Source of the DNA: an uncultured Christensenella sp.
GTDB lineage: Bacteria > Bacillota > Clostridia > Christensenellales > DTU072
Reading direction: 5' to 3'
DNA: 64,000 bases
Assembly: GCA_964620655.1 (NCBI GenBank)
Contig: CAZUJW010000004.1
Coordinates: 18,611 to 82,610 of the forward strand
The notes under the pieces were generated by a model. That model saw nothing but the letters and a program-made list of their open reading frames with translations, did no database searches and had not been told where the DNA came from. A program made the translations under genes and the position numbers. Of the stretch, positions 3,001 through 44,426 are shown piece by piece (the first letter of the stretch is position 1; each line of letters begins with the position of its first letter).

Positions 3001-6000
3001 AGAGTCTTGGCTTTCAACTGTTCTTTTTCGGAATCGGTGATACCGTATTTTACGTTGACGTAGGCGGAGCAGTAGGAATCCACCGTGCCTTCGACAAAAG
3101 ATCTCTTTCTTGCGGTCACGTTGGTTTCGCTGTTTCCGTCCGTATCGTAGTGGCTGCCTTTCATTTCAAGGAAGTCAAGGTTTGCAGCCGTCATACCGCC
3201 GACAATGGCGTTAAGAATTTCGGGCGTGGCTCCCGCGAAAGAACTTATCATTGCCGATAAGAAGTTTTCCACCGCTTTTACCATATCTTTTTCGGTGGCG
3301 AACAGAACCGCGTTTATAGTATCGGCTTTCTTTTCGGCGTAATCGGAAGCTATCTTCGCTTTAAGCGATGTGCTCATCTTGTCGATGCTCGTAAGATTTT
3401 CTTCCTCGAGTACGTCGTAAATAAACTGCATCTGATTTACGCCGAAACCTTTGTATGTCTTGCCCGAAGCCACGCTGTCGGATATAGCGTCGGCTACCTG
3501 AGCGGAAGTCATTCCGCTAAACGTACTCTGTGCGGAAGTGATAAGGGCGCTTATTGCATTAGCTACTCTCGTCTTTTCTCCGTAGTAGAGATAATCGGTG
3601 GCGGCGGAGCTTATTATATATTCCGCTATGCTCTTTCCGCCTAAGATATAGTCGTACAGAGCCGTGTTTTGTTCGGCTGTGAGTCCCGACAGAACACTAA
3701 TCTTGTTCTCGGTCATAGCGTTTGCTATCACGCCTATCTGCTTAGCGGTGTATCCGCTGTTAAGAGTACTCGAAGCCACGTTCTGCATAGCGGAGTCGAA
3801 ATCGGTCAACGCCGAGCCTTTCGTTTCGGGTTTTATAAAGGTGCTCGATTTAACAGTGCTGCCCTTTTCGCCCTCGTTGAGTTTTTCTGCGTCGAGTATT
3901 CCGCCGACGAGACTTGCCACGTCTATTCCGTCGGTGGTAATCATCGTTTCGAAATCGGTGCCCGAAAGCATACTCATAATCATCGCCGCAAGGTCGATAC
4001 CGCTTATGCTCGCTCTGAAAAGTCCGAGAGTGCCTAAGTCGGCGTAAACCACTCCGTCGATGTAATAAAGACCTATCATGACTTCGTCGTTATAGGTTAT
4101 TTCCAACTTCAACACGGACTTAGCAAAATCGGTAAGGTCTACGCCTAAGTCGAGACCGACGCTGAAAGTCATCGTGGTATCCTGCAAGTCGAACAAAATA
4201 GTGTCGGCTTGGAGACCGAGTATCTTTTCGAGCATGTCTTCGAAACCGGAAATAACTTCGCTCTTGTCGTCCGAACCGGGGTTTTTGGTCTGCAACGTAA
4301 GGTCGAGATTAAGACCTATATGCAAGTTCTTCAATCGGTCTATCGAAGTGTAATCGTCCTTGTCGTCGTCGCTTACGATAGTCATATCGGTCACTTCGCC
4401 GAGTTTTGCTCTCGGTTTCATGTGAGAGTAACTCTTATCGAAGTTGTAACGAATGGAGAACTGCTTGTTTTCGTCCAACACAAACTGAATACCGTTTACC
4501 TTATCCGCGTCGTCGCGACCTATCTTAACGTAGCTGAACGTCGGGATATTGAGTAAAGCGTCGGGAAGAATTCCGCCGAGCAAGTCGTTAAGGTTGCCCA
4601 CCAAAGTAAGGAGCAACGCGCCGGTTATAGCAATGCTTGCTTCTTCGTCGGAGTAGATAAGCATAAGCATGTTCTGCCCGAATTCCATATCCGCTATATC
4701 CTGATATCTCTGAGCGCGTTTTTCCGCGTCGGTAATATCGTTGCCGACGTTGCCGTCAGCCTGTTGCGGAATAATTTCCTGTTCGTCGTTACTTAGTCCG
4801 GTTTCTATCTTTTTAAGGATGTCTTTGACGAGTTTGCCTAAGTTTACGTTGCTTAACGAAATCTTCGGCAAGCCGAGACCCGAAAGGTCGAGATAAACAG
4901 TGCCGTCATCTTCCGTCCCTACGTATTTTATGGAGAGTATTCTCTGAACCAACGAGCCGTTGCCGTCGCCGTGCGCTACTTCCAGCTCGAACCTAAGTTT
5001 ACTTATATCCGAGAAATCTATGTAGGAACGTAACGCGAACAGTATCTCTACGTCGAGCGCGTCGCCGCTCTTAATATTGAAGCCGAGTCCGTTAATAAGA
5101 GAAGCGGTAAGTCCCGAAAGATCGAGAGCGGTGTTGAAATCGTCGTTTATGTGGAACGAACTGTTGACTTCGGTCACCCAGACGTAGTTCTCTAAAGGTT
5201 CGTATCCCGTCGAGAACTTTTCGGAAATGTTTTCGCCGAAGAAGTTTTCTTTCTGTCCGAGTCTTATGTCTATATCCGACAAACCGAAACCGAAGTCAAT
5301 TTTAGAAGTGTTGACCACGTTGCCGTTTTCGTCATAAACGGGAGCGTCGAGAGGAATAGTCAGGAACAACGTGTTGTTGATGTTGTCGAGTTCCAACTGA
5401 ATGTTGCCGAGTTCTGCGAATTCGAATCCGAACAGAGCCTGCAAGAAGGCGTTTACTATCGTGGTGGCAAGACGAATACCTATCGTGCCTTTACCGAAAG
5501 TAAGACCTTCTATTACGTCGCTCCAATCCATGTCGTCTACAAGAGCGTCGAGAGAAGCGGCGTTCTGCGCGGCGGCGTTACTCATATCGATATCGTAACG
5601 AGAATCGCTGTCGAGGAGATAGAAGAAGATGTTGACAAAGTTGATGTTAAACAGGTTATAACCCATTTGCGGCGTGAGAAGCAGTTTGTCGTGCAAGCCG
5701 TCTCCGCAATCAACGTAAATCTTCGGATCGAGAGTTCCCGTGCCTTCGCCGTCATGGTTAAGGAGTCCGCCGACGAAGTAGATATTGAATATGTTGACGT
5801 TGTCGCCGTTATATCCGCTTACGTAGAAGTCGAACGCCGTCTGTTCGAGGTCGATATCGAGACCTATGTCGAGACGAATTCTTCCGCTGGCGTTCTTCAA
5901 TATTTTGAGCTGGAAGAAGGTTTCTATTTCCTGAACGCTGAACAAGTCGCTCCAGTCAAGTATGGATTTAAGCACGTTGCTTTCAAGATAGATGCTAAAA

Positions 6001-9000
6001 CTTACCGTGGTACGCGCGCCGATTACCGAAGCGAGTATTTCGCTGAGGGTAGCGGACGTGTCTACGTTAAGTCCGAGCGCGAAGAAGTCTTCGAAGAAAC
6101 CGTCTTTATACAGTTCGTCTATCGAGCCGTACAGACTGTCGTACTTAGCCCTGTCGAGACTTACCACGGTGTTTCTTAACAAAGCGAGTTCCGCGTCGTA
6201 ACCTATCTTGTCGCTGCCTTCTTCGGCGTTCTTTCTTATGCTAAAACTCAGACCTAAGTCGTCGCCGTATTCTATGGCGAGTTCTCCTTCGGTAAAGGCG
6301 AGATTAACCAAATCTTCGAGGTCGCTGCTCAACGTTTCTTCCTTAAAGATTACTTTGACGAGTTCTGCTAAGATATCTACGGTAAGAATAAGAGCGGTTT
6401 CTTTCGAACCTATACGGAGCAATACTTCAAGTACGTCGGCAATGCTGCTGTCGGCGTTGTTTACGACGGAATAGAGCTGTTCGAACGGGTTAAGCATATT
6501 TTCCGCTTCTTCGCGGCTTACTCCGTGGTATGCGCTCATTACGGCGGAATTCAACGCTCTTATCGTAGCGGCGGAAGAGCCGCTCGTTTCGTCGCTTTCT
6601 TCCGTTCCGCCCGACGGATTTACTATACTGATAATCTTTTCGCCGAGAGCAAAAGGTATCTTTGCGCTGACGTGGCTGTCAAAGAGTTCTACCTGAGCGT
6701 AGATATTCGGTCCGTAGAGCCAGATATGGATAAGGACTTGCTCGAATCTCGTGTTTTCGCCGTTGGTGTCGTGGTCGATAAGGTAATAGGTAAGAGCAAG
6801 CTCGCCTACTATAGAACTGTTTATTCTGTCGGTATCGCCCGAAAGCAACGCTTCGAAGTTAATGCCGAGCTGTCCTTCTATCGTAGCGTACAGGGTATGT
6901 TCCGCAAGGAAGTCTATATCGAGTTCGCTAAGTTTAACGGGCAGGTTAATAAGGTTAAGAAGCGGGTTGATGTCAAGACGACCTTCGTCGAAGTTTATCG
7001 AAAGCGAAGCGTTAAGGTTTACTCTCAGAGTAAGGTCGGAGTATTCGATATATTCCGCTTTCTCGTCGTCGGTAAGAACGTCTTTAATAAGCGATACGCT
7101 CGTACCCGTTTCGTCTTCCTGGTATCTCTTTATGTCGAAGAGTATGCTCGTATCCTTGCCCGAAATACCTAATGACAGCGTGAGATCTGCCAATGCTTCG
7201 GCGGATTTCAACGCATTCTTATAGATTTGATCGAAGCTCTTTATTAAGGTAGAGCTGCCTTCGAGTACCGATACGAGTCCTATTATCGCCTGCGACTGCT
7301 TGTAGGAGAGATATTTTTTAAGTATATCGCTCATTTCGTCGAAAGTAAGGTACTCGGTGACGTCGCTTTCGCCGCTTACGGCGAGAGTTTCTTTAAGGGC
7401 GAGAGCGTTCTTTATTTCTTCGCTTGCTTTGAAAGAATAATACTTGTTCCAGATATAGGAAGTAAGGTATTTTTCGGGTTCGGCAAGGCTAAGGATTGCG
7501 CTTCTCGTTTCTGCGTACGCAGCGGACGTAACTTCGCTTAACGTCTTACCCGACGCGAGATAACTTTCTATTTCGTCGCTGAGAGCTATAAGGGCGAGAG
7601 CTTTTTCCTGCGCGGTGGAAGTCGAGTCTATTCCTTGTCCTTCCACGAAAGATTGAAGAAGCGGGTCGTTTGCTCTAATCGCGGCGGCTATATCGTCATA
7701 ATTTGCCGCGAGAGCGTTTCTGAACGTAACTTCGGTAATGGTAAGGTATACCGCGCTGTTTACGTCCTTAGCGTAACCGTCGAACTTCTGTCTGTAAATT
7801 TTGTTGATACCGCCTATATTGCTGCTGCCCGCCATAAAGATTACGCTGAGCATATCTATATAAGCGTCGCTTACGTCGCTTACGTCGCTTACGTCGTATC
7901 CGTAACCTGAGATAAGGTTCTTCGTTTCGGTGCGTTTAGCGACGGTTTCCGCAGTAGTAAACAGAGCGGAATATTCTTTGGAAAGAGAAGCGAAACTTTC
8001 GTAATACTTAGCGAGCGTAGCCAGCATATTTTCTGTCGCGCCGAACGTGAGGTAATTGTCTCTCACGAACGCGACGAAGGCTTTTCTTATTTCCGTCATC
8101 TTTTTTACGGTATCGTCGTTACCGGTAAGAACGCCGTTTCCTTTAATAACGGTGGCGAGCGTTCTCAACTTGCCGTCGGAAGTAAGCACGCCGTCTTCGG
8201 TAAACTTAGCCGTTTCGTCGGCGAACACGTTAATAAACGAGACGAATCTCGAATATTCGCCGGGGATAACGAAACCGCTGAACGCGCTTGCCGCGGCGGT
8301 AATCGTGTTTACGTTAAGTTCCGAACCGGTGGTGATTTCAAAATATATCTGTTTAAGTAACGCTATCGCTACGGTAGCGTATTCGTCGTACAACGCCGCC
8401 GCTTTCGTTCTGAAATCGCTGTAAATCGTTCCGTTGCGTTCGGAATAGATAAGCTCGGTGAAGTATTCGTAAGCGGTTTCGTAAACCTTATTTTCAAACG
8501 CCGCGCCGTAGCTGTTTAATACCGAGTCGAAATCTGAAACCACGCCTGCGGAGAGTTTACCCGCGACGTAGGACTTGTAAATCTTCTCCATAAGGAGAGC
8601 CTCGTTTTTATCTGTAAGAGTAAGCAAAACTTCCGTTCTGTCCTTTTCGTACAGTCCGACGGTATCTTTGTCGGTCTGCGCCGTAGACGAACCGAGAGCC
8701 GAAACGGCATCTTTCAATTCGTCGAACTTAGCTATATAGTCGTTATACTCTACTTTCGCGTCGGTTCCGCCGAAAAGCGAGGTGATATATCCCTTCGCAA
8801 AAAGCGAATCGAACATATTTTCGGCGGTCTCGTAGTATACGGAATAAATATTGTTTCTGTAACCGACGAGAGTAGCGTCGGAATCGTACCAGGTATCGAG
8901 GCAGAAAGAATACACCTTGGTCAGAAGTGTCTTTATGTCTATCGTGGTTTCGTTATCCTTAAAAAGGTTTTCCCAACCGAGAGCGGCGGTACGATAATCG

Positions 9001-12000
9001 CCTGCGTTCTCTGCGATGGTGTTTCTCGACTGGACGGATATCTTGGTATCGTTTTCCAACACTCTCAAAGTGCTGATTTGTCTGAAATAGAAACCGTATT
9101 CGGTTTCGCCCTGTTTTCTCGTAAGGGCGCCGTATCCGTTCAGATATGTGTACATAACGTAGTTGCCGTCGTCGTATTTTTCGTTATTGACGGACTCTAC
9201 GCCCTCGTTGTATTCGTCAAGGGTAATACCCTCGTCCTGATTATATGCATAAGTGTCGTACTTAAACTTCAACGTATCCTTTCTTATCTGTCTGTCGGCG
9301 GCTACTACGCTGTCCCACATAGGCTTCAACGCTTTCATAGTGGTAGCGGTCGAAGTGTCGGTAGGATAGGTAGGAGCGGTATAGGACACCTTTTCGTAGT
9401 CGGAACCGAGATATTCTTCTATTCCGCCGTCAAGTTCGTCCATAGCCTTTTCGAAATCGCTGTCGGTCTTACCTACGTTTGCGGCGTCGGCGAAGTACTT
9501 ATTGTACGCTTTAAGATAGTTCTTTTCGTATTCGTAAGTGCTTCTTGCGCTTTCCGCTTCGTTAAGGTGACCGTTTACCGATTCGATAAGGGTATCGAAG
9601 TTCGTCTTCGCGTCGCCGAGAAGAGCGTTTTCCGTAGCGGCGGCGTATTTACTTATCGTATGTTCCACCGCGGCGTCAAAGGCGGCAAATACGTCGGATG
9701 CGTACTTATTTTTGTCGTCGTCGGACAATTTGTCGTACATAAGGTCGCTGTACTTCTGTCTGTCGACGATAATTAACGCTTTGCGAGCGGTAGCATAACT
9801 TTCCGCCCACGTCACCGCAACGCTTTCGGCGTATTTTGTGCTGTCGGCGGTGATTTCGTCATAAACTTTCTTCATAATCGACGCTTTCTGCACGTCGGTA
9901 GCGGAACTTTCGAATTCTAACGTAAGTTCGTTTTCGGCGGCGTCGGATACGTCGGTCAATTCCTCGTCGTAATCTTTAAGGGTGGCGTACAGAGCTTCGG
10001 TTTCGCGCTTTAAGTCTTCAAAGTACTCGTTGTAGGAGATAATGTTGACCTTTTCGTAGGTCTTTGCGCTTACTCCTATTACGCTCATGCCGTCTTTGAT
10101 TACGGTGTTTGCGTTGCCGACGATTATTTCGGTAAGCAGGTTCTTTATGGACGGATAAAGGTCTTCGAAAACTTTCGCTCTGAGCATATCGTCCATTTCT
10201 TCTATTCTCGCGGCGGTGGAAGACAGTCTGTACCACGCTTCCCATGCCGAACGTTTAGCGTACTCTTCGTCGGCAATACGCTCGAACAATTTGTTTATAA
10301 ACGCCGCTCTTTCCTTTATTTCGACCACGTTGCGGTCGTTGTCGTAGACGTCGCCTTCAAAGTTAAAGGCGTTCCACGCTTCGGCGGTAAGAACGGAGTA
10401 GTCGCCGCCGTTAAAGGCGGTAATCGTCTGTTCCAATTCTTTTTTGAGACTGTCGGATTCGCAAATCTTAACGAATCTTCCGTATACAGCCGCTACGTAC
10501 TCGTTAAGTCCGAGAGTACGATATTGTTCCGCATAATCGAACGCCGTATTTACCGACGCGTCGCCCGCGTACTTGGTCCTGAACAGAACGAGCGCAAGGT
10601 AGGTCTGATACAAAGGCATACCCTTGCCGTCGACTATTTCGCCGTTGGTTTTTGCTTCGGTAAGATTATCGGTAGTCATTTCGCGAACGGGCATTATCGA
10701 CTTGACAGAGTCGTTAATATCCTTTCTTACGCTCTTGTTTAATTCGGTTTCTTCTTCTTTAAGGGTAGCGTACATATCTTTTACGATACCGAGAGCGGTG
10801 GCTATTTCGCCGTAGCGAGTCGTGCTTTCGCCCTTGTAGGAAGCAAAACCGTCGTAATACGCTTCGCAGGATATTACTCCGTAATTGCCTTCGGATACGG
10901 CTTTGACCATCTCGACGTCTTCCGCAGATAAGGTAGCTCCGATAAGGTAGAGATAACGGGCAAAACTTCTTGCCGTCCTGTAAAATTCGACGAGATACCC
11001 GTCTTTTCCGTAACCGGAGTTAGCGCAGATACTTATTACGTTGCCGATATTGTCGGAGTCGTCGGCGTAAGTTTCCGCCGCTTCGAACAAAAGCTTACTT
11101 TCCGCTCTCGCTTTGAGTTCGGCGTAGATAAGGCTCAGTTTAAGCATATCGTTTTCGATATTTACGTTATAGTTGTCGGCAAAGTAAACCGACGGGTTGA
11201 CTTCGTATCCGTTATTTTCTTCGCTAATTGCATACCCGCTGTTTTTAGCGCCGATTTCTGCCGAAAGGATAACGGCGTTTTCGGGGAGAATACTCTTATA
11301 TTCGAGACTTATAAGGTTATTCCAAGCGTCCGCGCGGAAAGATTTTCCGTCGGCGTAGTCTTCTATCGCAAGCTGTTCGACGGACTGCCCGCGAATTAAC
11401 TCGAACCTGTCGGCATAACGACCGATAAGGGCGGAAAGAAGTTCCGTCTTGTCGGATTCGGTTTCGTCGGGAGAAGCCACAATCTGGTTGGTTATTCTTT
11501 CGACGTCGGATTTTCTCAGTTCGTCTATTGCGTAAGCTCTTATGGTCCTTAACACTTCGGTGGAGTTGCCGGAGAAGAGTTCGCCTATGACGTTAAGGGC
11601 GTCGGAAGAAGAGAATATTATATCGTAAACAAGTTCCGCTTCCTGATATTCGTTAAGTATAACGGTATTCTTGACGCTGTAAGTCTGAATTCCCGTTACT
11701 ATCGCTTCGATAATCGCGATTAAGTCGGCAATATCGTCTTTCGTTACGCCTGTCGAACTTATATCCTCGCTTTCTCCGCGATATTTATACAGACGCATTT
11801 CGTTAATGACGACGGTCTTCAATATGCTTACGTCGTCGGCTACAAGGGCTTCTTCGTAAATGGTGGAGTCTTCTATAAGGTCTTTTCTGTACTTGTCGTA
11901 AGCGTAAGCCTTGAGTTCCTGCTCGGTAGCGGTCTTGTATCTTCCTGCGGCGTAGTTAAACGCGCTTTCCATCATCGCGACCTTGACGTAGTCCCTATCT

Positions 12001-15000
12001 TCGATAGCTTCTGCCAAGAACGTATCCCATGCGTACGCGCGCTGGATAATGTACAGTTCGTCGTACTTAGCGAGATAAATTTTAATTTTGTCGCTGCCCG
12101 AAGTGTACTTAATCTGGTCGGATATATAGGATATCCAAGCGTCTTCCATAGCAAACGTAGAGTTCATGATACCTTTTATTAGGTTCATATAAACGACCGC
12201 TTCGTGACCTACGGAAGATTTCATTTCGTCTATCTTCTCTTTGTGAGTATCATTTTCGTAAAGGTTCCTTAATTCTTCCGCTCCGCTTTCCGTACTTGCT
12301 ACGTACGCGTCGTAAACCGCAACTTTACTACCCGAATAGATGCTAAGCATACTGTCGAGAACGCTCTTTACCGCGTCGTCGGCAGAAGAATAGAAACTGT
12401 CGAAAGCGACGGTTTTTAAGTAGTCGTTATAGAACGCATCGAGTTTTTCGCTGCGTTTAGTCGTATTGTCTATAACCTTGTCGGAGCCGAAATCGTATCC
12501 GTACGCGGCGGCGAGAGAATCGTTGCCGTAAATCTCGCCTATCATATAATCGTAAGTAAGGGTATAGATTTGGTTATCGCTCATCTTCGAGAAGCGTAAA
12601 CGCATCTCCGCATAAACTACGCTTATATCGGGAAGACCGAGAGCAATCCATTCTTTTACCTTGTCGGCTTTGACCGAACCCGAAACGTTGTATAAGTCGT
12701 ACAAAAGACTGTCTTCGAAAAGTTTGTTCCAAGCGTCGTCGGGGTAGATAAGGTCGTCTTTCCTGTCGGAGTACCAGTTGTTTATTGCGGCTTCCATACT
12801 CTTAGGTACGGCTACGACGCTTTCCGACACGTTGTAGGCTTTGCTCGGCAGTCCTATAGTGATAAGGACAGTCATACTCGGAGTAATCGTAATTCCGAGA
12901 TAGGGGTCCAGAACGCTGTCCACCATCGTTTCCACGTTGGTGATAAGTTCTTTCATGTCCACGCCCATAAGCTGTTTAAGGATACCGAATATAGCTCCGT
13001 TGACGAGTTCTACGGTAAGACCTTTAACGACGTCGCCGATAATATTGACGGTTCCGTTGACTTTATTGTTAACGTCGGCAAACAAAGAAGTGTTTTTAGA
13101 AAAGAGCTGTTCGTACTCCTTTATGTTTTTGTAAGTGTTTTTTGCGTCGTCGGAAGCGTCCGAACCGGTAAGAGTCTTTATCATATCCATAAGTCCGGAT
13201 ATCTTGACTTTGCCTAAGTAGAAGTTTTCACTGTTACTTATTCCTTCGGCGTCGATATAGACGTCGCCCCTTATGTATGCGAGACTAAGTACGGGACTCT
13301 CGTTATCGGATCTTTCTTCGGGGGCTTTGGTATAAATACTTATCCTTGCCTGTAAGTCGTCTATTATGTTCTTTATATTTACGGTAAGATCAACCTTGAC
13401 GTAAAGTTTGGACTCGAGCGATTCGAGGAACTCTATAACGGGGTCTATCGCAGTGTCTATGCCGAGAGTAGCCCCCAAGTCGAAGTAACCGTTTTCTTTA
13501 AGAACCTGCAACAGTCCGCCCAACTTGTAGATACCTTTTTCGTCGGTGACGTTGATTATTATTTCGGTGGAGAAATAAACGGTATCGAGACGGTCGAGTT
13601 GGATATATTCCGCACTGTCGGATACCTGAATGTCAAGTCCGCTAAAACCTACGTAAAGTCCCTTTATGGACATTCCGAGTCCTAATGTCGGATTAAGTTC
13701 GGTGCTGCCGGTGACGAGATTTTCGCCGAGAGCGAGATTAAATCCTATATCGAACGTATTCACACCGTCTTCGACTTTCATACCCTTGACGTAGAGCTGA
13801 ATAGCCGCATCGGGGAACATATCGAAACCTCCGAAACCGAATACTTTAAGCATGCTCGCTATGGCGGCTTTCTTTATGATAAGGTATAATCCCGAAGAGT
13901 TTATTTCGGCGTCCACGCCCACCTTAACAGCTCCGATAGCGGCGTTAAGAGCGTCGAACGTTGCGAACATCGCCGCCGACTGTGCGTCGGTGCCGTCGCC
14001 GAAAATAAGGTTGCCGACGTCGGCGAGATACAACTTGTCGCTGTTAAGTTCGGACAGGTCGATATAAAGGTTGCCGCCGAAATAGGTTATTACCGCCCAT
14101 TCCTTATTTTGATCGGTAGCTACTTTTTCGCCCACTCTGAATATACGGAAAGCTATGCGGAACGAAGAACCGGATATAAGGTGGTCGAGATAGTTGTTGT
14201 CTTCGCCGTTGCCTAAATCGAGACTTGCTTCGATGTCTACCGCGACGGTTATTTTCTGTTTGTTGGCTATGTACAGAGCTATGTCCATCACGAGTCCGCC
14301 GAGATAATTGTTCATTATCGTGTTGACGGGGTCTTGATAAAGATTGGTTCCGTTGGTTACGCCGGCTTCGATTTCGAGAAGAACGGTGGTCTTCAACGCA
14401 ATTTTCGGCAACATTCCGTCCACTTCTGCAAAGTCGATAGGGTCGCCGTTTTCGTCGCGTTTAAGGACTTCGTCTTCGTCGAATTCTATCATCTTGTCCT
14501 GAGCGAAACTCAGTTCCATATTCCTTATGGCAAGTTCCAGTCCTATGCCCCTGCCGGTGCTGACGCCGTTTTCGTTGATGCTGTCGAAGTTAAGACTTAC
14601 GGCTATTACGTTTCTGTCGCCGTCGTCATAATTCTGCAAAACGTCGCTGTCCTTGCCGTAATTAGCCACGCTGAATATGTCGAGAGCAACTTCGGGCGAG
14701 CCGACTTTGCTTATCATGCTCTTGACGTCGCCCATACCGAGGAATGTAAGTAAGGTATAGATAGCGTTGGCGGCGAGCTGAACGCTCATTCCGTACTTAG
14801 CGAGATTTACGTCCACTTCGGGGTTGCTGTTGCCGTCGTCGACGGCAAGCACGTCTGCTATCATAGCAGCCATAATGACTTTCGCTATCGAGCCGCCGTT
14901 GTGAACGTCGTAAGCTACGGCGTATGAAGCGTTAGCGTTACCCAACAGTTTCTTAATCTGTTCGAGAGCGTTCTTGATGTACAGACGCTGAATATTGAAT

Positions 15001-18000
15001 CTTCCTGCGTCTACGTACACGAAGTCGTACTTCGTACCGTCGTCTTCGCTCCCCGCTCCGAATACCAATTGCAATACCGTTTCTTTTCTATTGCCGCTGT
15101 CGTCGAGAGAATATACGGTAAGGGATATATCGGTGTCGCTCAAATCCTTGTTTACAAGTCGGAACATATTTACTCTCGCTTCGAGAGAAATTCTGAAATA
15201 GTCGCCTACCGTGCTGAGAATACTGAGTACGGGGGCTATCTGCAAGGTCTGTCCGTTTATATTAAGGTTAAGTCCGAGTTGCGTAAGAAGCGAATTTACG
15301 AGTTCGGTAAAGTCGTACTGCACGTCGTCTTCCATGTTAAGCCCGAATTCGACGTCGAGTTTTGCGTAAACGTAACCGAAGTTTTCGTCGAGAAGGGAGA
15401 ATTCTCCGTTGGTTTTTTGGAGATTTTCGTCGTTGACTACTTCCGTGACTTCTTCCTGTCCCGTGATTTCGTCGTAGTCGTTATAAACGTACTGCAATCT
15501 CGTTCTTGACAGGTCGCTGTCGGCTATCTTTATACCCGCCTTTACAAAATCGACTTTAAGGTACAAATTGGCTATCTCCGCGCTGACGTCCGCGATAGAA
15601 CCGTCGTACAAGAAACCTATCGTAAGCACGCCTTCCTTGTTTGCCGCGTCTACTATAAGCTGCGGGATTTCGGAATACGACTTGTCGTAGTAGTCTTCCA
15701 AAGTAAGTTGATATTGTTCGGTTATTTCGGTCTTGTACCAGGTCACCGTGCCGTCTTCGGCGGTAGTGGCTCTTATCGTAAACTTGTTGCCGTCTTCGGT
15801 GGTGGCAAGAATACGCTCCGCGTCGGCGTTAAGATACTTCCATGCGGCGTATCTGTATTCGAGGTAAGTAAGAAAGTTCCTTGCGTTCCTTACGTAATTA
15901 TTTACGGCGGCGGTGTAATATCCGTCGGCGGTGTCGGCGTCTATCGCCTTATTGCTTACGAGATACTTCCAAGCCATCGCCTTATAGGTATAGCTTACCG
16001 CGTCGGCGTAACGACTGTATCTGCCGTCGGAAATTACAAACACGTTGTTTTCTCTTATGAAGTCTTCTTCCGAACCGTTGAGAGTCTGATTACCCGTAGT
16101 CTTCAAACCGAAATCGTTATAGGCGTAAGAGTTGACGTAACGGAGAGCCGAAAGTAAGTTTTCGTACTCGTTGTTTATCATACTGCGGATAGCTTTCCAC
16201 GCTTCGGAACCCGCCGTAAGTTTGCTGCCGCCGCTTTCGGTGTACTTCGTGTTGTAAATACCCTTGTATACGTCGTTATCGGCGGTGCTCCAATTGAATC
16301 TGCCGACGAAGTATTCGTACGCAAAACGTTCTATATTAGCCTGTTTTGCCGATTCGGATATGCCCGACATCGTAGCTACCGTTTCCTCCGCCTGCGCATA
16401 TGCGGTACTCAAAGCGTCGAGTTTTACGTTCATGGCGTTGGCGTAGCTGTCAAGCGCTATGCCGGAAACGTAATAATCGGTGTATTCTTTTGCGAACGCC
16501 GACATAAACTCGCCTTCCGCGTCGCTGTCTTCGAGAGCGTCCTGTAACGCCTCGATATCTGCGTTTATAAGCGCTGCCAGCTTATCCCAAGCGGCGGGAC
16601 AGACTTCTGCGTCGGCAGAACTGCCGTTTAAGAGTCCGTTATATATTTCCATCGCCTTGACGGTATAGTAATCGCCCAACGTACCGCTGTCGAGAAGAGC
16701 TTCCCATGCGTTGGCTTTTCTTCCGTCGTTTTCGGTGCTTGTCTCGCCGTCTACCCATTCGTTGGCGATGAGAATATCGTTCATCCTCGACAAAATCGCT
16801 TTCTTGTCCAGAATTTCTTCTTCTTTGTCGCCGGCGTACAACGCTTCGAGATAATTTCCTAAACTACGGGAGAAACGGCTCTTTTCGTCGTTGAAAGCTT
16901 CGTTAAGAAGTTTTATGAGAACGTTCGCCGCGGCGGACACGGTAAGACCGTAGGTATTGCCCACTATTCCGTGAATAAAGTCGCTTAACGCTTCTCCGTC
17001 GGCGTATAAAGCGGGAGCGTTGCTAAATCCGCTTAATCCGTTATTACCATTCATTGCGGCGAGAAGTTCGTTCATTCTCGCTTCGGTAATAAACAGGTCG
17101 GACGGTATCTTGTCCAAGTCTTCCTTGTTAGCTTCCGCGGTGGACTTCATCCATATAATGTATCTTACGAAGTCGTAAATTTCGGTACTCTTCTCGAACG
17201 CGCCTTTCGTGAATTCGGAATCTATTTCCTTTTCGTCGGCGTTGGAAGAAGTACCGCCCGTTTCGGAACCCGTATCGCTCGTATCGGAACCCGAATTGCC
17301 GAACAATTCGCCTATTCTCTTGATGAGAGCGTTGGCGGTGGATTCGAAGTCGGCTACCTTTATTCTTCCTATATGGAAAGCGGACATATCTATATAAAGG
17401 GACAGATATTCGCTAAGTCCGTCGGCGGAAGTTTCTTTAATAAGGTATATACCCAGAACAAGGTCTTCTTTTATGTAACCTTTATTTGCGCTGTCCTCCC
17501 GGCGGTTTACTATTTCGAGGAACATTTCCACGCCGGAAGAACTCAATACTTTAAGCAAATCTATCTTGCCGTCGTCGCCGCAAAGAGCCTTTTTAGCTTC
17601 TTTCTGCACGTCGGTAAGGGTGGACTCGTCGGCGGTAAGCAAGGTCATCAGCATAGAAAGCTGAGCAATGTTGGCTTTCGCTTCGAGATAGAAGGATAAG
17701 TCTGCACCCACGGTTTCGAGAGACTTCAATATTACGTCTACGGCAAAACTTTCGTCCTTTAACAGTCCCCTTAACAAGTCCCCGAAGTTTATCGACGTGA
17801 TATCGTCGGGAGAAGTGGAGGTGTCTTCGCCTTTCGCTCCGAGAGCCAACGAGCCTTCGAAGAAAATCTTGAAGTCGGTGGTCCATTCTTTATCGATTAC
17901 CGTGTAGGCGTCTTCGTTAATTACGAGTTCCATTCCGTCGGTAAGCGTAAAGTCGGGGTAGTTTATGGCTATGGACAGGTTAAACAAATTCTCCAAATCG

Positions 18001-21000
18001 ATATTCAATTCGACTAAGTCTTCGCCGAATGCGCTGAGATACAAGTTGGGGGTGTACTTATTAAAGTAGTTTTCGATATCCACGCCGAGAGCCGCCGTAA
18101 GAGCGTAGATGGCTCCGCCGGTAATTTTGAGCATAAGAAGGTCTTTGCCCTGTTCGGTGTTTACGGTAAGAAGAATTTCTCTCGCTATCGCGCCGGTAAG
18201 GTCCTGAACCGCCGCGTTGGAGGCGGCGTTGCTGCTGCCTCTGCCGGTAATTTTGCCCAGGTCTAAGCCGAAACCTTTCGCCAGAGCGATAAGAATCTGA
18301 CTTACGTTGTTTAATTTGATTTTTTCCACGCCTAAGAAGCCGAGATTTATATAAACGTCGGCTACGCCTTCGGCGTCGAGAATAACGTAAAGAGAAAGGG
18401 CGTTGCCCAAATAGAAGTCGCCGCAGAGACCGTACAACTTGTTCCAGCAAGCGGTGAACTGTTCGGTTTCGGTAACGTATTTACCCGAAGAACGTATTTC
18501 GGTCTGAATATCGAGCATAAGACGATAGCAAAGGTAATCGTCCAGAACTTGCGTTTCGTCGGTATAAAGGTTGCCGTCGGAGTCGTAACCGTCGCCGGGA
18601 ACGGAATCTTTAAGCTTGCTTACGAGCTGTCGCCATGCGGCGTCCTTTTCTCCGCCGTAATCTTTGAGCAATTCGGAAAGCATGCCTCTGCGGTCAGCCA
18701 GCTTTTCGTAAAGTTTGTAGTTCTTTTCCGAAGTAAGGTTAAGGAACAGTTCCACGTTCTTTAAGTCCTTAACGGTGGTAAGGTTTACGTTGGCGTTAAC
18801 GGAGAAGTAGGTAGCCTGCTTGAAGATATCGCCGTCGGCTATGTCTATCTGACCGCCCACGCCCCAGTCACGACCGTCCAACCAATAGTTGGCGAACATC
18901 TTAATGGCGTAGTCGAAATTAAAGTTGCGATACACGTCGGTCATCGCAAAGGACGTAAGACCTCCCCATTGCAAACCTACGGTAGTAAACTTTTCTACTT
19001 CTTCGTAATCTTTGTTTTTGTCTTCATCGGTAATTATATCTTCTTCGAAACTTGCGTTGATATTACCGATAGTCACGCCGATTTCGGTGGCGTGGTTGCC
19101 TTCTTCCGTTACGTTGCCTTCGGCGTCGAGATAAATATTCGCGCTTACGTCGACGTTGCCCTTGAACCCTACGAGAACTTCGAGACCGAAGTCGAGTTCC
19201 GACAAGGCTTCGGTAAGGTCGATGCCGAATATTCTTATCACGCTTATAAGCGTGGCTTTCGTGACCGCAATACCGAGGCTGCCGTCTCTGAACATAAGAT
19301 TAAGATAAGTGGCTAAATCTTCGCCGCTTTCTCCGTCTGCATAGGAAGCTCCGTCGGCAGAGTATGAAGCGGAACTATCCGACTTATCCAACCCGAGGAA
19401 CTTGTCTATCGCGTCGTTAAGCGAGGACATAAAGGAGGAATCGAATATATCCATAACGCCGTTTATTACCGCGGTGACGTCTTTCAGAACCACGTTGCCG
19501 ATATTGAAGATGTTGGTGGAAACGTAAACGTCGCCCGAGAACTGCGTTTCTCCTACGGGAACTTCACTTCCGTCGTAGAAGAGAGTAAGCACGGTTTCGT
19601 CGTGAATTTGTCCGTCGGCTTCGGAATAATTGTGACGGATAAGTTCTATTTTAAGAACGCTGCTGTAAATACTTGCGAACTCCAACCAGGCGTCTATTTT
19701 GAATTCGAGGCTGTCGTCCATTTCGCCCATAAACTGAGCCATAATGACCATCGCAAGGTCGTTAAGGTCGACTATTATGGAGTTGTTGACGAGATAATCC
19801 CACGCCTTAGCGTAATAGTTGTCGTCGCCTTCGACCCAGGTCTTCCATTCTTCGACGTTGTTTTTGTTGGCTTTTATATCCTTAACCGCCGAAGCGTAAC
19901 GGGTAGCCATTTCTTCTTTTTGCGCAGAAGTAAGTTCGGTTCCGTCAAGTCTTCTCCACGCCGCGGCTTTCATTGCGGTGACGGTCATATCCGTGCCGCT
20001 GTTTTCTTCGGCTATTTCCGCATATATTGCGTCAAGGTCGGTCTTCTTGAAATCGGAATTGCTGAACAACGTGCCTATCATATCGGTGATATCGTAGTCG
20101 TTGCTCAATCTCAATCCGGTTTCGCCCGTATCGTTTTTAATATATATAGAACCCGACGCAGAAACGTGTACTGCGTTCGGCACGCCGTCGGTCGTATTTT
20201 CGGGTTTGTATCTGTCGGTGTTTACGCTTATCGAATATTTTTCGCGCTCATCGGGGTCGACGCTCGCTACTAACTCCGTAAGTCCTAAACCGAATTCGTA
20301 CGTTCCGCCGAACGCTACCGATAAATCAAGCTCTATTCCGTCGCTTAAATCGAGTCCGAGTTTTATGTCGTCGAGAGTGACGTACTCGTTTACTTTTTCA
20401 AATCCCAACATGGTAAGTACCGCCGAAATGGTCGCGGCGGAAAGTTCTACCGATACCTTGCCCGAATTGAACAGTATCTGCAATGCGATACGATTAGGAT
20501 TGCTTATATCGGCGTTTTCACTAACGGTAGGCACGCGGACGTCGGAATTAAGGTTGGGCGTGACGGACTTTCTGAATTCTTCTATGGTTTCGCTGTTCGC
20601 GTTCTGCGGTTTGCTTTCTTCTATTGCGTTGAGTTCCGCCTTGAAAGAAGCGTTGTTCCTTATTCTGAAACAGGTGACCGCTTTAAGTTCGGTTTCGGTC
20701 ACTTTGCGGGCGGTATAATCACTCTCAACCTGGTCTTCGACGGCTTTATCCACCCATTCGGGGAGAAGTCTTATATAGTCTTCCGAAGCTCTTATCTGCG
20801 AGTTGGTCTTGCCGCCGTACATTTCGGCGTAGGTCATACCTTTGCCGGTATCGGTGGTTTCGTCGGTCTTCAAGAAGTCTATAAGGGCAAGGTCCTGCTG
20901 ACGCTGAATAGTTGCGTAGCTGTCTACCTTTATTACCGCTCTTAAATAGTTCTTTATTTCCGCTACGGTGTTGGCGTACTCGGTTCTCAAAAGGGTATCG

Positions 21001-24000
21001 AGCTGATCGCTTTTTCCTTTCTTGTTGTAGACGCTGTCGTATTTAGCCGCATAGTCGGCGAGCATCGTTTTATATGCGGAATTGGACTTGCTTGCGAGCA
21101 AGTCGTTAAGGTCGACGTAACGGGTTCTTTCTTCCTGGTTTCTGTCGTCGGTTTCCCATTGGTCGAGACGCATTTTTTCTTCTTCTTCCGCCACGCTTAT
21201 CCTTAACGGAGTTTTGTCGGTGGTTATGTACGGAGAAAGGGTCACGTAAATTTCACCCGTCGCGTTTCTTATCGTAATTACGCCGTTATTTTCGATTTCG
21301 TAAGTTTTGTCACTTTCTTTCAACGAAATATCGCAGGAAGAGTCGGTGTAATTGAAGTTTTCGGAGAATTCTTTGGCAAAGTACAGATAAATATATCCGT
21401 CGTCGTTAAGGAGATATTTATAAGAGCTCGTCGGGTAGCGGCTCGCATAACCGTGTCGTGTATAGAAGGTGTCGAAGAAGTAATTAAGGACGGTTTCTTT
21501 CATAACGTAATCCATAAAATCACGTTTGCTGTTGTACGCGTCTTTGGAATTAATTCTCGTGTCGCTCGTCTTATTGTAAGCGTTGTTCCACAGCAAGGCT
21601 ATCGCGCCTACGTAAGTACCTTCGAGGTCGCTTACCGCTACGGTGTTAATGCCGAAATAGCTGAAATCGACGTAGCCTTTATTGTCGTCTACGTATACGC
21701 CCGCTATTACGGTGTATCCGAGTCCTTTGCTTGTTATATATCCGCTTGCGTCGGGAGCCGACTTATCGAAAATTACCACGCCGACGTTACTTTCGAAAAT
21801 GTTGTTGACGTTTATATTGCCCTTGACGGCGATACCTATGTCGAGTCCCGTGTTGTAGAAGTAATCGTTGTCGATTTTAAGAGCTAAGCTCTTAATGAGT
21901 ACGTCGAGGAAGTCTTCGCTGTTTTCGGCGGAACCCATTATTTCTCTCAGCATCTTGCCTATCGTAACGTTGAGTTTTTCGGGGCTAAGTTCGGCAGAAC
22001 CCGCCTCGAATTTAATTCCCAACTCGACGTTTACGGAAATAACGAGTTCTTGCACCCATTCGGACAGAGAGGTATAGGTAGCGGAGCTGTGACCACCGAT
22101 AAAGTCGAGGTCAGAACCTTTCTTCATCGAGATACTTTCGATAAGGTCGAGTCCGACGTAGAAAGCGTCTTTCTTGCCCGTATCGCTGTCCACTATTCCT
22201 ATGTAAGCGGTGATATAATCTTTGTCCACGAAGTGGGGTACGATTTTGCTTATGTCTATATCCCAATCGGTAAGGTTGCCGTTTTCGTCGTAGATAAGGA
22301 GTTTTCCTTCCTCGTTATACTTATAAGAGAATACCTTTTTCTCTTTCTCGCCTTCGTTGTAGTAGACGTATTCGTAAAGCGGATTACCGTTCGCGTCGTA
22401 CGCTATCTGCGTGCCGAGATGCAAGAAAAGATTGCCGTTTACCTTCGGTAAATCGCCCGTTATGTCGAGAGACATAAGAGCCACCACCGCACTTAATACT
22501 TCGGCGTTTACGATAACACCGAGTCTTCCGTCTTTGACGGAAAGTTCTTCCACAGCTTGTTCGATAAGTCCCATCATATCGAGAGAATCTCCGCCGGCAG
22601 AGTCGCCGTCGGCGTTAAGGACCACGGTATCCGCCAGCATATAGAGAAGAGTCCTTTGCATGGCTTCTTTGTCAAAGCCTTTTCCGAATTCGACGGTGCC
22701 GTCGGCGTTAAGGCTTAAATTGAAGTCGGCGTTGGCGCCGATTATGGAGCCTATTCCCGAGAAGTCCAATTTTATTCCTTCCAGCATCTTGGCTATACCC
22801 ACGTCGGGAATGGACAGTTTGGGAATTTTGCCGTCGATTATCTTCGTAACTCCGAGTTTGTCGTGGAGCTGAGTCATCATATCGGCTTCTTCGTCGACTC
22901 TCGGGTTTATGTACAGGGTATCGTCGGTACCCGAATAGTAAATTGTAAGGAAGGGGAAGCCCTTAACTCTTTCTCCGTTCTCCAACAGATACAGGTCTAT
23001 AATAAGACCGAGTTCGGACAGTCTTAAAAGATTTACGCCGGCTTTGATTTCGTATCCTATATGAAGTTCGCTACCGGTTTCTATACCGAGTCCTACAAGA
23101 ACGTTCTGAACGAACGCTCCCACCAAAGCGGAAAGGTCGATTTCCGTATCGGCGTTGCTGCCTATCTTAAAGTCGCCCGTAATGGTAGCTCCGTATTCGA
23201 GAGCGCCCGCCATGGACCTGTATTCGCCCCTTAACGCTTCCGCTCTGTCCGCTCCGTCGCTCGGAACGTCGCCGTGGCTGTCGCAACCTACCGCGTCCAT
23301 ATCGAACGCGGGGGACTTGAAGTAGCTTATTCCCGTGGTGTAGGTACCGTCCTCGTTGGTCTTGCCGAAACCTACGTGGACGTTCATATTTTCGGTAACG
23401 TCGAGATTAACCCTTATCGAGTCGAACACGTCGGCAAGGTCTAACGATAATCCCATGCCGTAGATACCGAGATTCATTCCCGGCATAAACATACCGACGA
23501 GAGTGTTTATTCCCGCGTTGTCGAACTTCAAGCCGAATACTTTCGATTCGTCGTCGGGGAAGGTGAAGCATTTAAGATTACCTTGTTCGTCGGTTTGCAA
23601 CAGTAGTTGCAACAGTTTCATAACGTCAAAACCGCCCGTCGTATCTCCGTCGGCGTTGCTCGAACGAGTACCGCTCGTCGTTCCCGCATAGTACGGGTCG
23701 AAATATTTCATTATTCCGCCGAGAAGCCCCGGTACTTCGGGAGTTCCCGCAAGGATTTGCGTAATGTTAAGAGACGGCATACGCAGCTGCGGCATAAGAG
23801 CCTTGCCGTTACTGGTAAGGTTGCTCGCGTCGATATACAGAGTATTGAACATTACCGAACTGCCTTCCTGCAAGGACATGTCGGGCACGAGATATAGGGA
23901 TATTACTTCCGCTCCGCAATACTTTATGGTCGCCTGCGCTTTGTTGTTGGCGTTGTTAAATAAGTCGAGACTTGCGGCGAGTTTTACGTCGAAGTCGTAA

Positions 24001-36149: not shown

Positions 36150-36365
36150 GGTTTAGCCTGTAAACGACGGATTTGCCACGGCGAAACCGCAAGGAGTGAA
36201 AATTAGCCGCGCCGACGGCTTGGCAATCGACTCCGTACGGTGGATTTTTTGCAGCCTTACGCCGTAATAAGAGGCTTTGCATAAACGCGGCGAGAAGAGT
36301 GGAGTGCCGAGTGTATGGTAGACGCCGGTTTCATAACCCTTTCCGCCACGATTTACATATTTTTA

Positions 36366-36395
36366 TTGACAGAGCGGAAAGATTACCGCTACAAT
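36366..36395 (+). promoter_or_regulatory. Candidate promoter for the surface-protein genes
   Basis: TTGACA (36366-36371), 18-nt spacer, TACAAT (36390-36395). AAGGAG at 36417-36422 precedes ATG 36428. Confidence 0.55.
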
Positions 36396-36427
36396 CTTAC
36401 TATAAGGAATACGCACAAGGAGTAAAT

Positions 36428-39583: not shown

Positions 39584-39593
39584 GAGAATAGCC

Positions 39594-42680: not shown

Positions 42681-42731
42681 GCTGACAATAAAACGAATTT
42701 CGGCTAACGCCGAGCTAATTTACAGCAAGAT

Positions 42732-42766
42732 AAAGCAAAGTTCCGCCGTCGGCGGAACTTTGCTTT
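42732..42766 (+). terminator. Strong hairpin after the 1,028-aa lipoprotein gene (probable terminator)
   Basis: aaagcaaagttccgcc (42732-42747) pairs perfectly with ggcggaactttgcttt (42751-42766), a 16-bp stem. The T-tract is only partly present and is embedded in the 3' arm. Confidence 0.5.
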
Positions 42767-42821
42767 ATCGGGTTGTCATACCGCTAAAATTCTGCTTTTT
42801 ATATTCAAATTACAAAACCTA

Positions 42822-42850
42822 TTGAAAACCGTTAAATTTTTTAGTAAAAT
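42822..42850 (+). promoter_or_regulatory. Candidate promoter for the lipase gene
   Basis: TTGAAA (42822-42827), 17-nt spacer, TAAAAT (42845-42850). Confidence 0.45.
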
Positions 42851-42879
42851 TATTATATTATCGTTCGGGAGCAAAAAAG

Positions 42880-44256: not shown

Positions 44257-44284
44257 CGAAAACTTTCTTTTTTAACTAAAATAT

Positions 44285-44315
44285 GTCTCTCGGAAACGGG
44301 AGACTTTCTTTTTTT
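44285..44315 (+). terminator. Rho-independent terminator after the lipase gene
   Basis: gtctctc (44285-44291) pairs with gggagac (44298-44304): 7 bp including one G-U pair. The loop is ggaaac, and tttcttttttt follows. Confidence 0.7.
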
Positions 44316-44366
44316 CGCAAAAAAATTACGGAGAAAAGGACGATAAAAATATTTGATGATTACGTA

Positions 44367-44395
44367 TTGAAATCCGCATAAACATTTGATATAAT
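44367..44395 (+). promoter_or_regulatory. Near-consensus promoter with extended -10 for the MBG-repeat gene pair
   Basis: TTGAAA (44367-44372), 17-nt spacer ending in TGa, TATAAT (44390-44395). AAGGAGAG at 44411-44418 precedes the TTG start at 44427. Confidence 0.6.
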
Positions 44396-44426
44396 ATAAT
44401 TACTTTTATAAAGGAGAGTTCTTGAC

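Follow-up and report, generated by a model that had tools for sequence, protein, structure and literature searches.

The window, a stretch of 64,000 nt from an uncultured Christensenella sp., opens with a stop-free minus-strand frame (positions 3-25337) of 8,445 codons, which starts with an ATG at 25337 and encodes a protein of 8,445 aa or more, whose C-terminus lies past the left edge. Read directly from the sequence, the N-terminus is a lipoprotein signal peptide (aa 1-38, ending in LILALVFSIAAC; 25224-25337, minus strand) with the lipobox IAAC and Cys38, and the homologues with an intact N-terminus also carry a lipobox, their signal peptide ending in cysteine. Towards the other end, a CarboxypepD_reg-like beta-sandwich domain (aa 7809-7853; 1779-1913, minus strand; PF13620 at 41.4 bits, the cut-off being 32.3) marks the start of a non-modular C-terminal region, and the corresponding region of the homologue P0004 gave CarboxypepD_reg and Big_4 matches. 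In the alignment, residue 5138 of the 7826 of P0001 pairs with residue 8411 of the window protein and, since the orthologues are collinear, this suggests that some 2,700 further residues follow beyond the left edge; on this comparison the full protein is probably about 11,000 aa long. Among the neighbouring genes there was no conserved one pointing to a pathway. We interpret the region described here as coding for that portion of a giant surface lipoprotein which lies nearest the membrane; it is made of 14 beta-rich modules, each about 260-300 aa long and specific to its position, that arose by ancient duplication.

A first-pass annotation of this DNA had proposed about 12 diverged modules marked by a recurring Y-x-D element. 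The element is genuine, and all 12 quoted strings were found in the minus-strand ORF, although their coordinates were off by up to about 40 nt (TLYIDASNLTSNGK, given as 23829-23840, lies at 23802-23843). Each string lies in strand 4 of one conserved element. The two strand-like strings that had been placed between the motifs are also present, but one is strand 1 of module 12 and the other strand 1 of module 14, so that both are part of the motif's own element. In shuffled-sequence checks the bare pattern Y[IVLA][DN] was modestly enriched, about 1.6-fold (36 occurrences versus 22.4 +/- 4.6, a number reached by 14 of 5,000 shuffles), and the tighter [LVIF]Y[IVL]D was above expectation (10 versus 2.6 +/- 1.6, with none of 2,000 shuffles above 9). 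Twelve of the 36 occurrences share the same module strand and the remaining 24 are what chance would provide. Such figures for the bare tripeptide could speak for mere recurrence by composition in a long protein rich in Asp, Leu, Tyr and Ile, with no true modularity, but this explanation, to which we give practically no weight, is refuted by the leave-one-out profiles, by the finding of 80 homologues, matched 11-14 times each, and by the positional orthology presented below.

Self-BLAST of the protein disclosed pairs down to E 6e-6. In the leave-one-out test, in which profiles of element A, the ~80 aa that surround the motif, were compared with 100 locally shuffled copies of the protein, 8 of the 12 omitted copies outscored every match in the shuffled proteins and 3 more were outscored by a single shuffled match, so that 11 of 12 were supported and one (aa 446-532, in module 2) was weak. 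The element A profile also picked up a copy absent from the seed (aa 1876-1961). A second conserved element (element B), found about 55-130 aa downstream of the motif at nine modules, included one copy (aa 1621-1664) recovered though it was absent from the seed. The family profile raised the count to 14, confirming the modularity first proposed but not the number of copies.

The two modules that had been overlooked, both on the minus strand like all the others, are module 1 (aa 119-445; 24003-24983; family profile E 6.9e-20), with the motif TYVDIGG at aa 162-169 (nt 24831-24854), and module 11 (aa ~6091-6483; 5889-7067; E 2.4e-5), where NIYAQV (aa 6211-6216; nt 6690-6707) stands at the motif position. 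The top match of the former was module 1 of P0001 and P0004, and the latter was clearly best matched by module 11 of P0001, P0004 and P0010 (scores 248, 238 and 187, respectively). The family profile likewise matched module 2 (aa 446-756, motif TLYIDAS; 23070-24002; E 8.8e-21), module 3 (aa 757-1163, TLYINPR; 21849-23069), which also has a positional match to homologues, and module 12 (aa 6484-6761, KIYVDCG; 5055-5888; E 1.6e-10), a repeated leave-one-out match from outside the seed whose first strands are spanned by IRLDIGLDIDLEQTAFDFYV. Module 4 (aa 1164-1874, GYVDFS; 19716-21848) gave two partial profile matches to complementary halves, and an insertion of about 315 aa separates its element A (aa 1164-1245) from its element B (aa 1621-1664). 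Module 5 (aa 1875-2267; 18537-19715) was a profile match from outside the seed, and its motif, DVYVST, reads Y-V-S and not D/N. Profiles and positional matches identified module 6 (aa 2268-2545, DVYINLG; 17703-18536), module 7 (aa 2546-3379, SLYIDMS; 15201-17702) and module 14 (aa 7055-~7730, VVYADLG; 2148-4175), the strand 1 of which is MTFSVGLDLGVDL. For module 8 (aa 3380-3694, FVYVDAG; 14256-15200), module 9 (aa 3695-3974, NLYIDLS; 13416-14255) and module 10 (aa 3975-6090, DVYIDAE; 7068-13415) the profiles of both elements concurred with the positional match, and module 13 (aa 6762-7054, TVYLDLS; 4176-5054), which was modelled singly, was found by profiles.

The spacing of 270-420 aa reported at first holds for adjacent modules, the larger gaps being insertions. 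Besides that in module 4, these are of about 390 aa in module 7, after element B (aa ~2840-3226), of about 300 aa in module 14 (aa 7165-7470) and, as found by comparison with orthologues, of about 1,890 aa in module 10 (aa 4165-6050; 7188-12845, minus strand), where the insertion also follows element B and the last part of the module picks up at about aa 6052. The module 10 insertion is helical-looking, high in Ala, Glu, Tyr and Lys and low in Gly; it is missing from the compact orthologues and partly common to the relative P0011. Homologue alignments are collinear, with insertions confined to module loops, and judging from the sequence the long gaps between motif copies are lineage-specific, helical-looking insertions and no extra modules.

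Identity levels bear out the proposal that a ~300-aa beta-rich module was copied long ago and that the copies have diverged strongly: identity is 13-24% between paralogous modules, against 28-34% for the module 13 orthologues of four aligned relatives. The statement that nothing repeats at the DNA level also held, as there were only short matches of 24-48 nt at 70-80% and no relevant tandem arrays. When compared with three homologues, module i best matched module i in 14 of 14, 14 of 14 and 13 of 14 cases, and the 14-module array must therefore be older than the family. When 1.84 billion (1.84e9) proteins were searched exhaustively with the module profile, there were only 80 matches, many of them lipoproteins of 6,500-7,900 aa, the giant members having 11-14 profile-matched stretches each; exactly 14 modules were present in 12 of the 16 proteins of at least 6,500 aa. 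The window protein is collinear with homologues of 7,100-7,900 aa at 24-31% identity, and these comparisons show that the module count (14) and order have been kept across the family. Relatives turned up in 27 genomes in a genome scan; almost all of these carry the label Christensenella, Christensenellales or Clostridia, which so far places the family almost exclusively in these gut and rumen bacteria. One family member, MFA5448907.1 (P0003) of a Clostridia bacterium, is a full-length homologue of 7,809 aa with a lipobox and 14 modules, collinear with the window protein. It was the only named member seen ("carboxypeptidase-like regulatory domain-containing protein"), a name that covers a small C-terminal domain only and leaves the 14-module region, more than half of the protein, without annotation. 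That the module matched no known family was borne out by Pfam, searched with the whole protein and with 45 separate modules, and by a PDB sequence search with the module, neither of which gave a match to the modules; the module is a new sequence family.

AlphaFold2 models were obtained for module 13 alone (pLDDT 71, about 90 over element A) and for modules 1-3 together (pLDDT 73.9, pTM 0.61). With moderate confidence, each module is predicted to begin with a five-strand antiparallel meander in which the Y-x-D motif is strand 4, followed by a helix and an acidic, disordered loop, then by a strand-plus-helix element and finally by 4-6 more long strands. In the three-module model the order of secondary structures is identical in each module, and the junctions are turns of 3-4 residues with no linkers (strands 384-387 then 391-402; 695-698 then 702-715). 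In the consensus, hydrophobic and polar positions alternate along the strands, which are thus amphipathic. Such alternation, together with the existence of giant Firmicute surface proteins with beta-solenoid domains (Apilactobacillus Giant1-4; PMC12863079), was compatible with the first suggestion of the first-pass annotation, a fibre of strands wound into a long beta-helix. The models, however, gave hairpin-linked strands of 10 to about 20 residues, helices and disordered loops, with no short regular coils, and there was no beta-helix protein among the 50 Foldseek matches listed, making this fold very improbable.

With the three-module model, the highest-probability Foldseek matches were LolA-superfamily proteins, which are open barrels that bind lipids (probability 0.28-0.94 over six independent PDB entries; 4mxt 0.94, 3buu 0.84, 8t5t and 7tpm 0.77, 9tp6 0.69), and there were weaker matches to the ApoB-100 barrel and MTP. 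Since the top fold matches bind lipids, they point to a possible ligand-binding role, not a purely structural one. The modules might thus be open beta-barrels or repeating-beta-groove (RBG)-like units with concave faces binding acyl chains, a groove-like fold having been the other suggestion of the first-pass annotation. Arrayed head to tail and anchored at the membrane, they would act as a conduit through which lipids or lipid-linked polymers are moved, or as a reservoir in which they are held, with an outer layer of the envelope as the destination in these Firmicutes, which atypically stain Gram-negative. We regard this as unlikely, even though the LolA-type matches, the amphipathic strands and the N-terminal membrane anchor would suit it. 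The RBG bridge-like lipid transfer and AsmA-like proteins (VPS13, ATG2, BLTP1-3; TamB, YhdP) are likewise very long, N-terminally anchored and composed of highly diverged repeats detectable by profiles only. Element A plus its sequel, as modelled, fits the published RBG unit of a five-strand meander, a helix and a disordered loop (PMC7613979), and the traits described for RBG proteins (characteristic domain numbers that set the length, domains conserved by position, and loops that make the length vary; PMC7613979) are all three seen in the family of the window protein. Also favourable is that C. minuta is Gram-negative in staining, is given a "Gram-negative cell wall structure" and figures in a table of atypical Gram-negative species without LPS/outer-membrane genes (PMC11448272). 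On the other side, the host lineage is reported to lack outer-membrane genes, and there is no known acceptor membrane. Moreover, the LolA-fold matches are weak (TM-score 0.24-0.33, rmsd 11-16 A), the single-module model had no Foldseek match whatever, and no structure of TamB, VPS13, ATG2 or the other bridge-like and AsmA-like proteins named above was among the 50 matches listed for the three-module model. Pfam AsmA, TamB, Chorein and LolA gave no match even at E <= 1, Chorein_N and related Pfam families gave none either, and hhalign against an enterobacterial LolA alignment gave a probability of 0.04%. An RBG unit is only about half as large as the window module, which has additional strands and helices; anchoring is through a lipobox in place of a transmembrane helix, and the ~3,000-aa beta-sandwich tail is foreign to known bridge proteins. 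As to LolA/LolB, an unclosed antiparallel beta-barrel with a helical lid, the likeness lies in the order of about 5-6 strands, helices and about 5 strands and in the amphipathic strands, but there is no sequence relationship, and 13-15 strands are predicted per module versus 11 in what is a single soluble ~200-aa domain and not 14 covalently linked copies.

We believe that a fixed-length, rigid beta-sheet stalk bearing C-terminal beta-sandwich domains is the best reading, with roughly one chance in two of being correct. The 14 modules would pack as one rigid, elongated superstructure, tethered by the N-terminal lipid to the outside of the cytoplasmic membrane. This superstructure would serve as a stalk or scaffold keeping the ~3,000-aa C-terminal array of beta-sandwich domains (CarboxypepD_reg, Big-like) a fixed distance away from the cell, where they would bind, and the lineage-specific insertions in module loops would decorate it. 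We infer the rod-like packing, as well as the nature of the concave face, from secondary structure and pTM only. Staphylococcus Ebh is another giant repeat-containing surface protein of Firmicutes. A role in binding or aggregation is presumed for such proteins too, and Apilactobacillus kunkeei Giant1-5 (PMC12863079) are similarly thousands of residues long, extracellular, elongated and modular, with Ig-like/beta-sandwich domains. Giant Firmicute surface proteins, however, carry beta-solenoid, helical-bundle or Ig-type repeats of known families, often recent and variable, whereas the window modules are neither homogenised nor repeated at the DNA level, and are fixed at 14 position-specific copies behind a lipid anchor. 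A huge, membrane-tethered protein of rigidly joined beta modules, occurring across 27 genomes of the order, in a lineage whose envelope is reported to be Gram-negative-like although outer-membrane genes are lacking (PMC11448272), could also be a major component of a proteinaceous, S-layer-like sheath of Christensenellales, its modules packing laterally instead of projecting outward. This we find improbable: the Pfam searches disclosed no SLH or other S-layer-related domain, giant single-copy lipoproteins are not known as S-layer formers, and the reading is entirely inferential. With regard to the stalk, adhesin stalks normally vary in repeat number, and it is unusual for them to have modules that are not interchangeable and whose number is strictly conserved; this would suit a machine of defined length no less well.

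The giant minus-strand protein of the window carries a real and ancient array of 14 modules, together with an N-terminal lipobox and a C-terminal beta-sandwich region. No stop codon interrupts the minus strand between 3 and 25337 (8,445 codons); the ORF starts with the ATG at 25337, and the frame leaves the window at its left edge. At its N-terminus (MRPKNQESIAQSGKKKSFFSYALMLLLILALVFSIAAC-SERPDD) the product has a signal peptide of the lipoprotein type, with a lipobox and Cys38. The pattern applied, an N-terminal signal peptide ending in [LVI][ASTVI][GAS]C (bacterial lipoprotein, Lgt/LspA substrate), was found at aa 21-38 (YALMLLLILALVFSIAAC), and by this criterion the product is a predicted bacterial lipoprotein. 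An equivalent lipobox signal peptide is present in the homologues whose N-terminus is kept. The composition is high in Leu, Asp, Ala, Ser, Gly and Ile and low in Cys, Pro and Trp. Pfam showed no match in the first ~7,800 residues, and the only one over the curated cut-off was CarboxypepD_reg at aa 7809-7853 (PF13620, 41.4 bits vs a gathering score of 32.3), which spans less than 1% of the window protein and lies outside the modules. In the alignment with the 7,826-aa homologous protein P0001, residue 8411 falls opposite residue 5138, from which we infer that about 2,700 more residues would follow past the window.

A first-pass annotation of this DNA had proposed 12 diverged modules marked by a Y-x-D element, with no repetition at the DNA level. 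The 12 motif strings and two 'strand-like' strings that it reported were all present, within ~40 nt of their assigned positions, and a DNA repeat search of the window agreed that nothing repeats at that level. The motif Y[IVLA][DN] occurred 36 times, against 22.4 +/- 4.6 in shuffled sequences, of which 14 in 5,000 reached 36 occurrences; the motif is thus more frequent than in shuffles, but the bare pattern is weak evidence. Twelve of the 36 occurrences occupy one structural position of the module, while the other 24 equal the chance expectation, and the repeat signal is carried by the context around the motif. Self-BLAST of 400-aa chunks yielded weak, reciprocal pairs centred on the motifs (for example, aa 7054-7150 with 118-207, E 6e-6; aa 7066-7152 with 6773-6873, E 3e-5). 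An alignment of ~90 residues around 11 motifs depicted four amphipathic strands, the Y-x-D strand, an 'lG..kIkl' strand and a helix, and the HMM built from it found the twelfth copy (aa 1876-1961), which was absent from the seed. When copies were left out one at a time, eight of the 12 scored above all matches from 100 local shuffles of the window protein, three were beaten by one shuffled match each and one was weak. Besides the ~80-aa stretch around the motif (element A), a second conserved element (element B), a strand plus a helix with the pattern 'G-L-x-h-x-h..aI..lL..lG-D', lies ~55-130 residues further downstream than the motif; nine modules were found to contain it, including one (aa 1621-1664) outside the seed.

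To define the family, a profile of the 12 modules was compared with one representative per 50% cluster of ~15 billion proteins. This exhaustive search found 80 proteins at E <= 1e-3, 14 of them at E <= 1e-30, whereas non-exhaustive homologue searches, ill-suited to this composition, retrieved none with aa 3301-4533 and four with the N-terminal alignment. Fifteen of the 80 proteins are 6,500-7,900 aa long; 14 of these 15 carry 11-14 separate profile matches, and 14 start with a signal peptide ending in cysteine. The sole named member is MFA5448907.1, 'carboxypeptidase-like regulatory domain-containing protein [Clostridia bacterium]', so that the only database name of the family rests on a domain of ~45 residues. 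The iterated profile defined a domain family of 465 module instances in 81 proteins, with 15 matches in the window protein. Two of these 15 belong to a single module, module 4, which an insertion divides in two, bringing the count for the window protein to 14. The proposed modules are therefore real, but they number 14 and not 12, the two missed being module 1 (motif TYVDIGG, aa 162-169) and module 11 (NIYAQV at the motif position, aa 6211-6216). Among the 16 proteins of at least 6,500 aa, 14 modules were counted in 12, 15 modules in two, 13 in one (it shows a gap, and one diverged copy may be missed) and eight in one that lacks a signal peptide and is therefore probably partial. A tandem-repeat adhesin with recent, homogenised repeats does not agree with this copy number (14 in 12 of 16), nor with the absence from the window protein of DNA repeats and of any Pfam repeat family. 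Modules of the compact members follow one another directly at a period of 230-320 aa, between residues ~100 and ~4,200, and after them come 3,100-3,700 aa without modules; this C-terminal region holds CarboxypepD_reg and Big_4-like beta-sandwich domains. Eight homologues (P0009, P0014, P0016, P0023, P0026, P0030, P0008 and P0018) form a second, more distant subfamily with 13-15 modules over ~5,300-5,800 aa and shorter C-terminal tails (920-2,560 aa).

The copies had been taken to be ancient and highly diverged, and module-by-module orthology bears this out. In Smith-Waterman comparisons, each module of the window protein best matched the module in the same position in P0001 and P0004 (14 of 14 in both) and in P0010 (13 of 14). 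Accordingly, module 13 shared 28-34% identity with its orthologous counterparts in four aligned relatives, vs 13-22% with every other module of the same alignment. Positional matching and identity together indicate that the 14-module array predates the divergence of these proteins and that each position is distinct, the architecture being older than the family. Fourteen modules were also counted in the distant subfamily (P0009, P0014, P0016 and others), where pairwise orthology is no longer visible. The window protein is collinear with its homologues at 24-31% identity, except for four blocks missing from the compact members, at aa ~1240-1600, 2700-3220, 4165-6050 and 7165-7470 (nt 20658-21602, 15660-16820, 7188-12845 and 2928-3845). 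These blocks are low in Gly and high in Ala, Glu, Tyr and Lys; judged by sequence and a crude propensity scan, they look helical. They sit within module loops, in the stretch from element A to element B or immediately behind B, and not between modules, which explains the large gaps noticed at first between some motif copies. The largest (~1,890 aa) showed no Pfam match and no internal repeats at the BLAST level, and is shared only in part, at 28% identity, with one relative (P0011).

The fold was modelled with AlphaFold2. For module 13 (45 module sequences; pLDDT 71, ~90 over element A) the model comprised five consecutive strands with the motif in strand 4, a 17-residue helix and a low-confidence acidic loop of ~40 residues, followed by the two strands and helix of element B and then by at least three strands. 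The model of modules 1-3 (aa 55-1163, 26 orthologues; pLDDT 73.9, pTM 0.61) repeated this order of elements three times, with 13-15 predicted strands per module, strands of up to 21 residues and junctions of only 3-4 residues (strands 384-387 then 391-402; 695-698 then 702-715). Thus, an antiparallel meander-plus-helix architecture is predicted, with modules joined without linkers, and the models suggest rigidly connected, perhaps continuous, antiparallel sheets. The beta-solenoid that had been offered as a speculation does not agree with the long hairpin strands, helices and disordered loops of the models, and the 50 Foldseek PDB matches listed included no beta-helix protein. Beta-solenoid heads have been described in the Apilactobacillus giant surface proteins Giant1-5 (PMC12863079); these and other giant Firmicute surface proteins differ from the present one in module, anchor and repeat evolution.

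With regard to known families, the module had at first been matched to none, and this held, there being no sequence relative in Pfam or PDB. The PDB search with the module profile gave no match, and Pfam on 45 separate modules yielded scattered single matches only. The modules make up a new sequence family which, as far as genomes were sampled, is confined to Christensenellales and related Clostridia. Neither this domain family nor its architecture had been annotated; both are new, although the protein falls into the broad class of giant surface proteins of bacteria. Foldseek against PDB with the single module 13 model returned noise only (E > 0.3), likely because a module cut from a continuous sheet would not be compact and a third of the model is of low confidence. 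With the three-module model, the highest probabilities corresponded to open barrels of the LolA superfamily (4mxt 0.94, 3buu 0.84, 8t5t and 7tpm 0.77, 9tp6 0.69); the entries of this type, 4mxt and five others among those listed, had TM-scores of at most 0.33 and rmsd of 11-16 A. The lowest E-values belonged to TbpB entries with a probability of only ~0.16, the ApoB-100 barrel and MTP were weak matches, and target-normalised TM-scores did not exceed 0.33 throughout the matches listed. The LolA/LolB fold is an unclosed antiparallel beta-barrel of 11 strands with a helical lid over a hydrophobic cavity, in contrast to the 13-15 strands predicted per module here. LolA-type Pfam families (PF03548 and relatives) gave no match at E <= 1 in the 45 modules or at E <= 0.1 in the whole protein, and hhalign, run with the module alignment against 100 LolA sequences, returned a probability of 0.04%, a weak negative given that the LolA alignment is shallow (Neff ~2).

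We believe that the most economical role of the modules would be to build a rigid, length-defined, membrane-tethered superstructure acting as a stalk or scaffold for display of the C-terminal domains. As a rod, it would be expected to measure about 50-60 nm. If so, it would be a rare example of a length-defined repeat scaffold that is not homogenised. Alternatively, the 14 modules might make up a single unbroken beta-groove with a hydrophobic lining, or a row of LolA-like cavities. Such a structure, anchored at the cytoplasmic membrane and measuring tens of nanometres, would bring lipid or lipid-linked material to an outer envelope layer of unconventional kind, in a Gram-negative-staining Firmicute lineage reportedly devoid of outer-membrane genes. 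The strict conservation of module number and identity would suit such a conduit, as would the Foldseek matches to lipid-carrier folds and a predicted topology reminiscent of the RBG unit. This unit, found in bridge-like lipid transporters, is a five-strand meander plus a sixth element that starts as a helix and continues as a loop (PMC7613979); in the four modelled modules the first half follows the exact RBG order, although the second half fits less cleanly. On the other hand, no RBG structure (VPS13, ATG2 or TamB) was among the 50 Foldseek PDB matches listed, and the Pfam families Chorein_N, AsmA and TamB (DUF490) matched neither the window protein nor the 45 modules. On balance we regard the lipid conduit as unlikely. 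Christensenella minuta stains Gram-negative and is counted among the atypical Gram-negative Bacillota without LPS or outer-membrane genes (PMC11448272), and lipid-binding modules, if such they were, would inform on how the envelope of these Firmicutes is built. Few health-associated gut lineages have been studied as much as Christensenellales, yet their envelope and surface biology is poorly understood; a literature search for this protein family in Christensenella or Christensenellales found nothing relevant. Conserved throughout the order, the family occupies 20-30 kb per genome and has almost no annotation; its module boundaries are now concrete for structural and genetic work.

A scan of one genome per GTDB species with the module 1 alignment disclosed 27 loci, nearly all labelled Christensenella, Christensenellaceae, Christensenellales or Clostridia and many from rumen or gut MAGs, the closest (86% identical) being RUG11213 and Christensenella sp. 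UBA6420. Every locus had a lipobox-initiated ORF, most of which extended to the end of the DNA examined, and module starts were at comparable positions. Neither Christensenella minuta DSM 22607 nor another cultured Christensenellales strain figured among these 27 matches, which came from a scan with a single peptide pattern. Plus-strand ORFs of 170-390 aa within the giant gene (63-1238, 5667-6179, 6525-7172, 9078-9776 and 19602-20718) are most likely spurious, being antisense to a gene conserved in 27 genomes. The neighbour upstream of the giant gene varies between clades. In 13 related genomes (loci L006-L026), a protein of ~267 aa, like a PIG-L/LmbE deacetylase when its 'HxDD' N-terminus was identified by eye, is encoded 245-350 bp upstream on the same strand; in the window and its closest relatives a divergently transcribed feoB stands in its place, so there is no universal partner gene. 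The other neighbours in the window (formate-tetrahydrofolate ligase, LysRS, other surface proteins and a GH31 hydrolase), like FeoB, would be consistent with a Clostridia genome and suggest no pathway. A run of probable surface proteins lies at 36299-47812 (+), including one of 1,094 aa with six Listeria-Bacteroides repeats and BspA-type LRRs, one with MBG and Ig_2 domains (46004-47812, +) and two large ORFs without Pfam match (39594-42680, 1,028 aa; 44427-46013, 528 aa); a further ORF of 971 aa without Pfam match is at 58262-61177 (-). A tRNA scan and Rfam at gathering score found none in the 64-kb window. The AT skew flips sign at ~28 kb, where the coding strand switches.
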